Assembly (NCBI GenBank): GCA_964592255.1
Contig: CAZQCI010000002.1
Span: forward strand, 1-60,480
From: an uncultured Nitrospiraceae bacterium
GTDB taxonomy: Bacteria; UBA10199; SBBF01
Length of the DNA stretch: 60,480 bases
Direction of reading: 5' to 3'
The notes under the pieces are model-generated. The model did not search any database. It saw only the letters and a program-made list of their open reading frames with translations, and was not told the DNA's origin. Shown here in pieces: positions 36,843-38,090 of this stretch; positions within the stretch are counted from its first letter, which is position 1, and every line of letters begins with the position of its first letter. The translations under genes were made by a program, and so were the position numbers.

Positions 36843-38090
36843 ATGAAGGAATTTTTTAAAATTACCAAACAAGGGCAAAATACCCGGGCCCGACGGGGAC
36901 GTATCACCACACCCCACGGCGTGATTGAAACACCTATTTTTATGCCTGTAGGTACCGTGGGTACCGTCAAAGCCATGCGCCCTGATGAGTTAAGCCAAAT
37001 GGGTGCCCAAATTATTTTGGGAAATACGTATCATCTTGCCTTGCGACCTGGTCATGAACTCATCCAACGCCTAGGAGGGTTGCATCAATTTATGAGTTGG
37101 AAGGGGCCTATCCTGACCGACAGTGGCGGTTATCAAGTGTTCAGTTTGGGCCGCGCTCCAGAACTAAGACAAGCAGCCTCTTCTGATCCTGAATCCGGAG
37201 ATGAAGATAATCTTTCTGCTTTACGGACCACTAAATTGGCTCGCATCAATGATGACGGTGTGGAATTTCAATCGCACATTGATGGTCAAAAGCATTTCAT
37301 GACTCCTGAAAGTTCCATCCAAATTCAACAAGCTTTAGGTTCCGACATTATGATGGTTTTTGATGAGTGTACGCCTTATCCGGCGACTTATGAACAAGCA
37401 CAAAAATCGATGGAGCGTTCTCTACAATGGGAAAAGAGATCAATGCTGGAGGCCGATAAAGCGATTGAAAAAAAACAGGCCCTTTTTGCTATTGTTCAAG
37501 GGGGACTTTATCCGGAGCTCAGAAAACAATGTTTGGAACGATTAATAGAGATGGGATCTGATAATTCCCCCCAAGCCCCTCTTAACTTAAGAGGGGGAGG
37601 GTCGTTTGCCGGCTATGCTTTGGGGGGCCTCTCCGTCGGTGAACCCATGGCTGAAATGTATGAAATGGTCGATGTGTGTACCCCCTGGATGCCGCAAGAC
37701 AAACCCCGTTATCTCATGGGTGTGGGTATGCCGCGCGATCTGATTACTTGTATTGATTTAGGTATCGATATGTTTGACTGCGTAATTCCGACACGTAATG
37801 CCCGCAATGGGATGTTGTTTACCCCTGACGGTTTTATTTACATCAAGCAGGCCCAGTTTGCGGAGGATAAACGTCCCATTGATGAATCGTGTGCCTGTTA
37901 CACCTGCCGGAATTATTCACGTGCCTATCTTCGCCATTTGCACCTAGCTAAGGAAATTTTGTCTTCTATTTTATCTACAATTCATAATTTACATTACTAT
38001 TTGAATTTGTTAAGCCAAGTACGCCTTGCTTTGGATGAGGATCGGTTTCCTCAATTTAAAAAAGAATTTTTTGAAAAACAACACAACTGA
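36843..38090 (+). CDS. tgt: Queuine tRNA-ribosyltransferase (tRNA-guanine transglycosylase), carrying two lineage-specific insertions
   Basis: Motifs [42 protein letters not shown] and the zinc site CxCxxC...H ([17 protein letters not shown]). It is 415 aa, where I recall about 375 aa as typical. Confidence 0.93.
37558..37606 (+). repeat. CCCTCTTA-palindrome family repeat located inside the tgt reading frame
   Basis: ATAATTCCCCCCAAGCCCCTCTTAACTTAAGAGGGGGAGG. Contains the 10-bp inverted repeat CCCCTCTTAA/TTAAGAGGGG (37576-37596). Translated in frame as [16 protein letters not shown]. Confidence 0.7.

Follow-up and report, generated by a model that had tools for sequence, protein, structure and literature searches.

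The tgt gene of an uncultured Nitrospiraceae bacterium encodes 16 residues that have no counterpart in E. coli Tgt, and this locus raises the question of where the extra residues come from and how the enzyme accommodates them. The stretch of DNA analyzed, called the window below, is 60,480 nucleotides long. The predicted protein is clearly a Tgt, as its comparison with the E. coli enzyme gives E=6.8e-124 (phmmer, PDB) and its homologues are those of Pfam PF01702. The genes yajC and then secD lie downstream of tgt, in the same tgt-yajC-secD order as in relatives. No record of exactly this protein was found in the databases searched. The Tgt sequences of E. coli and Z. mobilis align with the window protein on both sides of the extra segment, leaving a gap of exactly 16 residues between the two aligned parts. 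The DNA in this gap is 48 nt long, a multiple of three, and free of stop codons; in the codon register it reads TCT GAT AAT TCC CCC CAA GCC CCT CTT AAC TTA AGA GGG GGA GGG TCG. The first-pass annotation had proposed that a palindromic repeat lies in frame inside tgt and adds about 16 residues. The exact gap bears out this insertion; the position assigned to it (37558-37606) is displaced by one base from the codon register. The features discussed here are collected in Table 1.

Table 1 Positions of tgt, its insert, and the repeat copies in the window
Feature	Position	Strand	Support
tgt ORF (tRNA-guanine transglycosylase / queuine tRNA-ribosyltransferase), 415 aa	36843-38090	+	ORF list; phmmer; Pfam; AF2 model
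16 extra codons in tgt	37557-37604	+	exact 16-residue gap in pairwise alignments with E. coli and Z. mobilis Tgt
Repeat element proper in tgt: TAAT tag, TCCCCC, 4-nt spacer, hairpin	37560-37598	+	cross-genome profile, nhmmer E=1.6e-11
Perfect palindrome with 10-bp stem, CCCCTCTTAA (37576-37585) / TTAAGAGGGG (37587-37596), 1-nt centre C	37576-37596	n/a	sequence
Intergenic copy between ORF 10738-11742 and ORF 11816-12754	11751-11788	+	profile E=7.5e-11
Degenerate copy, TAAC...GGTGGAGTTA tags and weak hairpin	12752-12792	n/a	inspection; below profile detection
Intergenic copy, left half of inverted doublet	57939-57976	+	profile E=1.4e-7
Intergenic copy, right half of inverted doublet	57988-58023	-	profile E=3e-13

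The insert is a genuine copy of a dispersed palindromic repeat family, as confirmed by several comparisons. A profile HMM was built from 140 copies in other genomes, none of them from the window, to avoid circularity. Its match in tgt spans 13 of the 16 codons of the insert, and this copy also agrees exactly with the pattern of 22 specified bases that was used in the genome scan described below. At up to three mismatches, the 21-mer occurs at two places in the window and at none in 100 shuffles, so that the nucleotide likeness to the other copies is better than chance. In a repeat search of the window, positions 37562-37598 proved to be 84% complementary to 57987-58023. A Thermodesulfovibrio MAG (L118) has a copy that is about 87% identical across all 48 nt, suggesting that the whole insert, rather than the profile-matched part, is probably derived from the element. 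The 57-nt loop segment of the gene has a folding energy of -23.1 kcal/mol (z=-4.3) and is its strongest-folding window. Upstream of the stem, the copy reads TAAT-TCCCCC-CAAG, with a TAAT tag instead of TAAC; a clear outer 3' arm is lacking, and no target-site duplication is evident in the flanks.

The 60-kb window contains five copies in total, four of them supported by the profile and one, at 12755, degenerate, and all except the tgt copy are intergenic. The profile matches to the intergenic copies cover 11749-11788 (+), 57943-57973 (+), and 57987-58025 (-). Among the four intergenic places named in the first-pass annotation, those at 11748, 57936, and 57988 are thus substantiated, and the one at 12755 escapes the profile and is at best degenerate; in its tag, TAA serves as the stop of ORF 11816-12754. 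The copies at 57939-58023 form a REPIN-like doublet that is bounded on the outside by TAAC and GTTA. The copies in the window share the architecture (GAG)TAAC, TCCCCC, 3 to 4 nt, CCCCTCTTA, 3 to 4 nt, and TAAGAGGGGG. The stem is perfect over 10 bp in the tgt copy and comprises 8-10 bp in the others. No Rfam family matches anywhere in the window at gathering thresholds.

To describe the family beyond the window, one genome per GTDB species was scanned with the 22-base pattern, and the matches listed include at least 117 stretches with 140 copies. They come from MAGs labelled as Uhrbacteria, Doudnabacteria, Microgenomates, Saccharibacteria, Nitrospirota, Thermodesulfovibrionales, Geobacter, Desulfuromonadales, 'Deltaproteobacteria', Dehalococcoidia, Planctomycetota, Bacteroidales, and Gammaproteobacteria, and from one cultured strain, Geobacter argillaceus. 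TAAC stands directly 5' of the pattern in 132 of the 140 listed copies, even though the pattern does not specify it. The core of the repeat is about 40 nt long. Many copies end with GGGGG(A/C)GTTA to give a nested hairpin of 47-50 nt, and full copies are bounded by TAACTCCCCC...GGGGGAGTTA. Intergenic copies adjoin start and stop codons. Inverted doublets are also present in four other loci (L014, L024, L027, and L043) and inside the Tgt gene of L001. Sixteen copies, all with TAAC, are located on 13 IMG/VR viral contigs.

Three other identities were considered for the repeat and rejected. In integron attC sites, the R-box AAC/GTT face inward (RYYYAAC...GTTRRRY), whereas TAAC and GTTA are outermost in the repeat. 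The copies are dispersed, unlike those of a CRISPR array; the sole array found (L015) has a 220-nt period that results from tandem duplication of a gene end. The CATAAC context does not generally represent a start codon on the opposite strand, as an ORF of at least 60 codons begins at that ATG in only 5 of 55 cases. Searches for PPLNLRGG, RGGEGEL, and CCCCCTCTTA returned irrelevant literature matches only, and no description of a TAAC-tagged repeat family was found in the searchable literature, which leaves out most subscription journals. The family and its candidate enzyme partner, discussed later, appear to be undescribed.

Turning to the protein, the nearest homologues of the window Tgt come from uncultured 'Deltaproteobacteria bacterium' MAGs in a collection of 5.8 billion proteins, and are 59-74% identical to it, as counted over the aligned columns of a 38-sequence Tgt alignment (A1). 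In the aligned sequences, the repeat is absent from the distant enzymes of E. coli and Z. mobilis and from P0005, the orthologue with the shortest loop in A1, which reads MEMG-K-FSGFA at this place. The first-pass annotation had described the flanks of the insert as contiguous in other Tgt proteins. This holds for E. coli and Z. mobilis; among the closest relatives, the loop has about 0 to 47 extra residues (5-12 in most, and none in several), so that the flanks are not simply contiguous in this clade. Similarly, the spacing from QGG to GGLSVGE is 26 in E. coli-like proteins, has a median of 34, and is at least 38 in 19 of 104 homologues. The databases searched contain no near-identical tgt allele with an empty site, the best homologue being 74% identical over A1 columns and 69% by local BLASTP. 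At this identity, and with a loop of variable length, the ancestral loop and the exact boundaries of the insert cannot be fixed.

An AlphaFold2 model of the window Tgt was built from the 38-sequence alignment (mean pLDDT 85.6). The model superimposes well on the crystal structures of Z. mobilis Tgt, with target-normalized TM scores of 0.94-0.96 and rmsd values of 1.4-1.8 Å. It predicts a helix at residues 224-238, a loop at 239-256, and a strand at 257-260. The insert corresponds to residues 239-254 and makes up most of the loop, and confidence is low there only (pLDDT 54 for the block 241-250). In a (beta/alpha)8 barrel, the loops that lead from a helix into the next strand are found where the strands have their N-termini, and the active site is on the other face. 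The substrate-pocket motif, GGLSVGE, is at the other end of strand 257-260. In the model, the insert thus falls in one of these helix-to-strand loops, on the side of the TIM barrel that faces away from the active site. The columns that are invariant in A1 are all conserved in the window protein, including DSGG (D93), D174, and D312 in FDC. The zinc site CxCxxC...H, also invariant in A1, is kept as C350, C352, C355, and H381. The window protein therefore has the sequence, the fold, the catalytic Asp residues, and the zinc site of a bacterial Tgt (PF01702), and judging from the model, the enzyme very probably still works with the insert in place. The proposal that a mobile palindrome colonized a conserved enzyme without destroying it is supported in this respect, as the profile is independent of the window, the frame is kept, and the modeled fold and the catalytic and zinc-binding residues are intact.

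The DNA of seven relatives with long Tgt loops was compared with the window gene. In six of the seven, an in-frame palindrome is found at exactly the same loop. In the Tgt gene of L001, a sister element is present as an inverted doublet, AAATCCCCCC-TCA-CCCCCCTTT-TTC-AAAGGGGGG, with a folding energy of -66 kcal/mol. The loops of L119 and L123 contain palindromes with arms made of heptamer repeats, that of L124 a hairpin with arms of short direct repeats, that of L121 a 150-nt GC-rich hairpin (-85 kcal/mol), and that of L122 another palindrome. The exception is L120, in which a 15-nt direct repeat surrounds 22 nt. The loop segment is the strongest fold of its gene in seven of the eight genes including that of the window (z from -3.0 to -11.7 against shuffles), and no control window in those seven is as extreme. 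Two other length-variable regions of Tgt are not palindromic and show no excess folding, indicating that variable loops do not fold strongly as a rule. From one orthologue to another, the palindromes have different sequences. When the inserts of the relatives were compared with all DNA collected by short-query BLAST, one further match was obtained, of the L001 type in L022. At the protein level, the loop sequences of P0049, P0090, and P0050 also resemble translated hairpin repeats. Taken at the level of sequence, these observations suggest that the helix-strand loop of Tgt is an insertion hotspot, apparently hit independently many times.

Copies of the repeat are also found within other genes. 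Of the 140 listed copies, 33 are inside frames that run for 200 codons or more without a stop, and some of these frames are spurious or terminal extensions. The host proteins verified by Pfam are YggS, a histidine phosphatase, a GT2 glycosyltransferase, and MacB for copies in the same orientation as in tgt, and RuvB, MurC, Fmt, YchF, and an AIRS-family protein for copies in the opposite orientation. The former are translated as NSPxPPLxLRGG(x)GEL, which is the frame used in Tgt, and the latter as PPLK(V/L)RGG(R/E)G(S/E)(Y/L) or PSYLKRG. Three of these in-gene copies were compared with solved structures. RuvB and YggS show clean insertions of 29 and 11 residues, respectively. In YchF (L105), the repeat module takes the place of about 30 native residues, and in-gene copies are thus not always harmless. 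Eighteen of the listed copies are flanked on each side by 100 or more open codons of the same strand. Ten are in-frame read-throughs, and the other eight separate pairs that are different adjacent genes, judging from their starts and motifs (for example, a histidine kinase and a response regulator, an epimerase and a PIG-L-like protein, and a gene and MoaA). None of these 18 copies splits a gene.

Four other explanations of the insert should be considered together. The 16 residues might be an ordinary lineage-specific loop of Tgt whose likeness to the intergenic repeats is due to chance or composition. The loop is indeed variable in length in this clade, with 5-12 extra residues in most relatives, but the match of the window-free profile, the failure of 100 shuffles to yield the 21-mer even once, the exact agreement at 22 specified bases, and the L118 copy that follows the insert over its whole length are all at odds with such an origin, and selection at the protein level would not keep a perfect 10-bp palindrome. 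This explanation is effectively refuted, and we regard it as extremely improbable. Alternatively, the element might never be translated, because it is excised from the mRNA or because ribosomes hop over it, as happens with phage T4 gene 60 and the mitochondrial 'byp' elements. A strong hairpin within the coding region and a consensus tag that begins with TAA would fit this idea, and mobile GC-rich palindromes are bypassed during translation in yeast mitochondria. However, the tgt copy is stop-free with a length divisible by three, every internal in-gene copy found elsewhere is likewise in frame and stop-free, and the same translated motif, NSPxPPLxLRGG, recurs. If the length were free, the chance that all ten read-throughs are in frame would be at most (1/3)^10. 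The absence of split genes among the 18 copies is predicted by translation with selection and not by splicing or ribosome hopping, and no Rfam family matches the element. Removal or bypass is accordingly very unlikely.

The two remaining explanations accept the insertion and differ in its consequences. If it had inactivated Tgt, the gene would be a young pseudogene that still looks intact, and a palindrome that is still perfect does suggest a recent event, just as the copy in YchF coincides with lost native residues. Nevertheless, the ORF is full-length with all invariant residues of the family, the insert is predicted to lie on the barrel face away from the active site, and many lineages hold much larger inserts at the same place in an otherwise conserved gene, so we consider inactivation improbable. 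The insert might instead have been co-opted, either as an mRNA hairpin that modulates expression of tgt-yajC-secDF or as a Pro/Gly loop with a role in the protein. Such a role could explain why palindromes recur at one loop in at least seven lineages, and the location of intergenic copies beside start and stop codons would be compatible with it. On the other hand, several relatives have no insert at all, and the inserts share no common protein feature because their sequences are unrelated and their lengths differ, from 16 up to about 47 residues. That inserts have survived repeatedly in a single permissive loop is a simpler explanation, and co-option seems unlikely.

The agent that moves the repeat was sought among its neighbors. 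ORFs from the element loci (117 listed) were clustered in search of a recurrent neighboring transposase. The clusters inspected included no Y1 transposase, and consisted only of generic families (response regulators, ABC ATPases, and histidine kinases) and a 125-residue protein identified as DUF559 (Pfam E=8.5e-36). In seven of the 117 loci listed, copies abut both the start and the stop of the DUF559 gene. The start codon abuts or overlaps ...GGGGGAGTTA(TG) in these seven loci, and the last codons, which read LTPPxLPL and stop, form a second copy, TAAC-CCCTCCC-nAC-CTCCCCTTA-nnn-TAAGGGGAGG. As a reverse test, 80 metagenome loci were picked by two DUF559 protein motifs alone, 61 of which had enough flanking sequence. 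A matching repeat was found on both flanks in 30 of the 61, as compared with 18 of 305 mismatched control pairings, and the flanks fold with z < -2 in 36 (upstream) and 35 (downstream) of the 61. The type of repeat tag follows the similarity of the DUF559 proteins. Three types were distinguished, GGGGGAGTTA, GGGGGGATTT, and GAGGGTGA, and GGGGGGATTT is the type found in the Tgt gene of L001. No DUF559 gene is present within the 60-kb window, and no paper linking DUF559 or Vsr with REPIN/RAYT was found in the searchable literature. As an association, this arrangement resembles that of RAYT genes bracketed by REPs, in that DUF559 genes are bracketed by matching repeats. It is conceivable, though we lean slightly against it, that the TAAC hairpins and their sister families, such as GGGGGGATTT, constitute a second REP-like system, whose partner would be DUF559, a small Vsr-like PD-(D/E)XK nuclease, instead of a Y1 RAYT transposase. 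The bracketing copies would then change with the nuclease lineage, the elements would spread across phyla, possibly via phages, and they would routinely settle in frame in loops of essential proteins, the Tgt loop being a recurrent site.

For the window gene, the explanation that we hold to be highly likely is that a small mobile TAAC-tagged nested-hairpin repeat inserted a copy of itself into tgt, that the copy is translated as an in-frame loop away from the active site of an enzyme that very probably works, and that DUF559 is a candidate for its mobility, with selection for tolerated copies. The copy would have entered between helix 224-238 and strand 257-260, in the sole reading frame of its orientation that is free of stops. 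The C5 and G5 runs would be read as Pro-Pro and Gly-Gly to give (D)NSPxxPLxLRGG, and with a stop-free frame and a length divisible by three, the insert is expected to be translated as a 16-residue Pro/Gly-rich loop. It would be neutral or nearly so. Our best guess for the mobility is that a single-strand hairpin is recognized by a dedicated nuclease, for which the DUF559 (Vsr-like) protein is the candidate. Selection would retain only in-frame, stop-free copies in permissive loops, which may explain why unrelated palindromes are found in the same Tgt loop across lineages.

The repeat should be compared with known elements. Inserts such as the byps and that of T4 gene 60 disrupt the reading frame or contain stop codons, and ribosomes pass over them. 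They resemble the repeat as mobile palindromic inserts in an essential coding sequence whose product survives; in contrast, the inserts of the repeat are always in frame and stop-free. Rickettsia palindromic elements (RPEs) are about 100-150 bp long and are not known outside Rickettsia. RPEs are palindromic dispersed repeats located in frame inside ORFs (Ogata et al. 2000, as cited in PMC3733652). The first-pass annotation had drawn a parallel to RPEs, which is valid for behavior and not for family membership. Like RPEs, the repeat is palindromic, dispersed, and present both between genes and in frame in conserved, apparently functional proteins, namely Tgt, RuvB and YggS with clean insertions, and seven further hosts by Pfam. 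By its description it is set apart from them, being 40-50 nt long with a TAAC tag and C5/G5 arms and occurring in many phyla.

REPs are also found wholly inside ORFs in several proteobacteria, and in their described superfamilies one end of the element is marked by the tetranucleotide GTAG or CGTC (Di Nocera et al. 2013, PMC3733652). REP/REPIN elements are associated with RAYT transposases (Bertels and Rainey 2011, PMC3116915), and REPIN-RAYT systems are described in a preprint as mostly vertically inherited (bioRxiv 10.1101/2022.05.22.493013). REPs are hairpin-forming imperfect palindromes of 20-40 nt. The repeat resembles REP/REPIN elements in being a short palindrome of this kind that has a conserved tetranucleotide at one of its ends, occurs as singlets and inverted doublets, is mostly intergenic, sometimes supplies stop codons, and occasionally lies wholly inside ORFs; each also has a small nuclease gene with matching copies on either side of it. 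However, the tag here is TAAC and not GTAG or CGTC, the repeat is nested, the outer arm being in part a repetition of the inner one, and the bracketed gene encodes a DUF559 PD-(D/E)XK (Vsr-like) nuclease and not a Y1 HUH transposase. Near-identical TAAC copies across phyla and on viral contigs also differ from the inheritance of REPIN-RAYT systems. MITEs such as Correia/NEMIS and Nezha are 70-300 bp long, with 15-30-bp terminal inverted repeats, target-site duplications, and a known IS transposase (PMC10969869). The repeat shares with them a non-autonomous, hairpin-forming, and multi-copy nature and sometimes extends or interrupts ORFs, but is 40-50 nt long, with neither a duplication nor an IS partner found.

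In-frame palindromic repeats are thus already known from RPEs and from REPs in ORFs, and the tgt insertion is a new example of known behavior. What is new is that a single Tgt loop is used again and again, that the repeat family extends across phyla, and that it has a candidate nuclease partner. The in-frame colonization of conserved enzymes by palindromic repeats has so far been viewed largely as a peculiarity of Rickettsia and of a small number of proteobacteria rich in REPs. One defined repeat family is now seen to do so in several phyla, including Patescibacteria with small genomes, and its copies thereby map, in nature, the loops of essential proteins that tolerate insertions. It also explains puzzling Pro/Gly-rich 'PPLxLRGG' segments in metagenome proteins, which can cause errors in alignments, domain calls, and predicted structures. 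If the link to DUF559 is true, a widespread domain of unknown function would gain a role, and the REP/RAYT paradigm a second enzyme class.

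The helix-strand loop of Tgt that holds the in-frame repeat copy in the window (residues 239-256 in the predicted model) carries unrelated in-frame palindromes in six orthologues, all from long-loop relatives. In each of these, the loop palindrome is the strongest-folding segment of the tgt gene. Judged at the protein level, the loops of three further homologues (P0049, P0050, and P0090) look similar to those of the palindrome-bearing orthologues. The loop segment of the relative L120 is non-palindromic; its appearance suggests either a duplication or a footprint left by another type of insertion. 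The window's Tgt also has a clade-specific insert elsewhere, which is common to its closest relatives and missing in the E. coli and Z. mobilis enzymes, and which has pLDDT values below 50 in the predicted model. With a fold z of about 0, this insert is non-palindromic, so its origin differs from that of the repeat insert at 37557-37604.

Positions of the palindromes, inserts, and other repeats in the window and in the loci of other genomes.
Feature	Location	Details
Tgt-loop palindrome	L001 7127-7228	
Tgt-loop palindrome	L119 886-981	
Tgt-loop palindrome	L121 6501-6650	
Tgt-loop palindrome	L122 10622-10753	
Tgt-loop palindrome	L123 5679-5777	
Tgt-loop palindrome	L124 1402-1515	
Direct repeat in Tgt loop	L120 10724-10786	15-nt repeat (GATTCACGATCCACG) either side of 22 nt
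Clade-specific Tgt insert	window 37137-37232	Tgt residues 99-130; about 25-30 residues
Second palindromic family (GTCATCCCCGCGAAGGCGGGGATCC)	window 10664-10725, 43087-43174, 57192-57302	
15-nt periodic direct repeat	window 16058-16298	GAAACTCGTGGAGTT-like units, two blocks
Tandem array	L015 2618-3454	220-nt unit x 3.8, 96% identity

The tgt copy (window 37530-37607) and the copy in L118 (reverse strand, about 210-320), which a Thermodesulfovibrio MAG carries inside a transposase-like ORF, have near-identical 16-residue translations, and their similarity extends past the element core, with matches at AGAGATGGnATCTGATAA upstream and AGGnTC downstream. Since the upstream matching part encodes the conserved E-M-G in tgt, this likeness may reflect target preference or chance.

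At window 12752-12754, the TAA of a repeat copy's TAAC tag is the stop codon of the upstream ORF (11816-12754), which starts with VKIAVLKGGVSAERD and resembles a D-Ala-D-Ala ligase, and the tag serves likewise in 17 of the 132 TAAC-tagged copies among the matches listed (L002-L118). In the YchF of a Doudnabacteria MAG (L105), the repeat module stands in place of about 30 native residues, the NxxE-type G4 region among them, in the alignment to T. thermophilus YchF; impairment or an unusual reduction of this gene is possible.

Two other kinds of repeat occur in the window. A second palindromic family is present as inverted doublets, and a sequence related to it encodes the start of an ORF in L069 (read as IPAFAGMT), suggesting that this family may also be widespread. 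The 15-nt periodic repeat is probably a pentapeptide repeat within a coding region.

Small genes for DUF559 (PF04480, Vsr-like nuclease) have matching nested-hairpin repeat copies on either side (L014, L015, L042, L077, L084, L096, and L110, and the metagenome loci L125-L204). The start codon adjoins one copy, and the last codons (..LTPPxLPL*) are themselves another. Among 61 loci selected by protein motifs alone, both flanks carry the same repeat in 30, versus 18 of 305 control pairings, and the repeat type follows the protein lineage. In L015, a DUF559 gene comes after a tandem array, each unit of which contains a gene 3' end and two repeat copies.

No DUF559 gene is found on the viral-contig stretches from IMG/VR (L205-L217). 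These 13 contigs carry 16 copies of the repeat, all 16 with the TAAC tag, and are a possible route of its spread between phyla.
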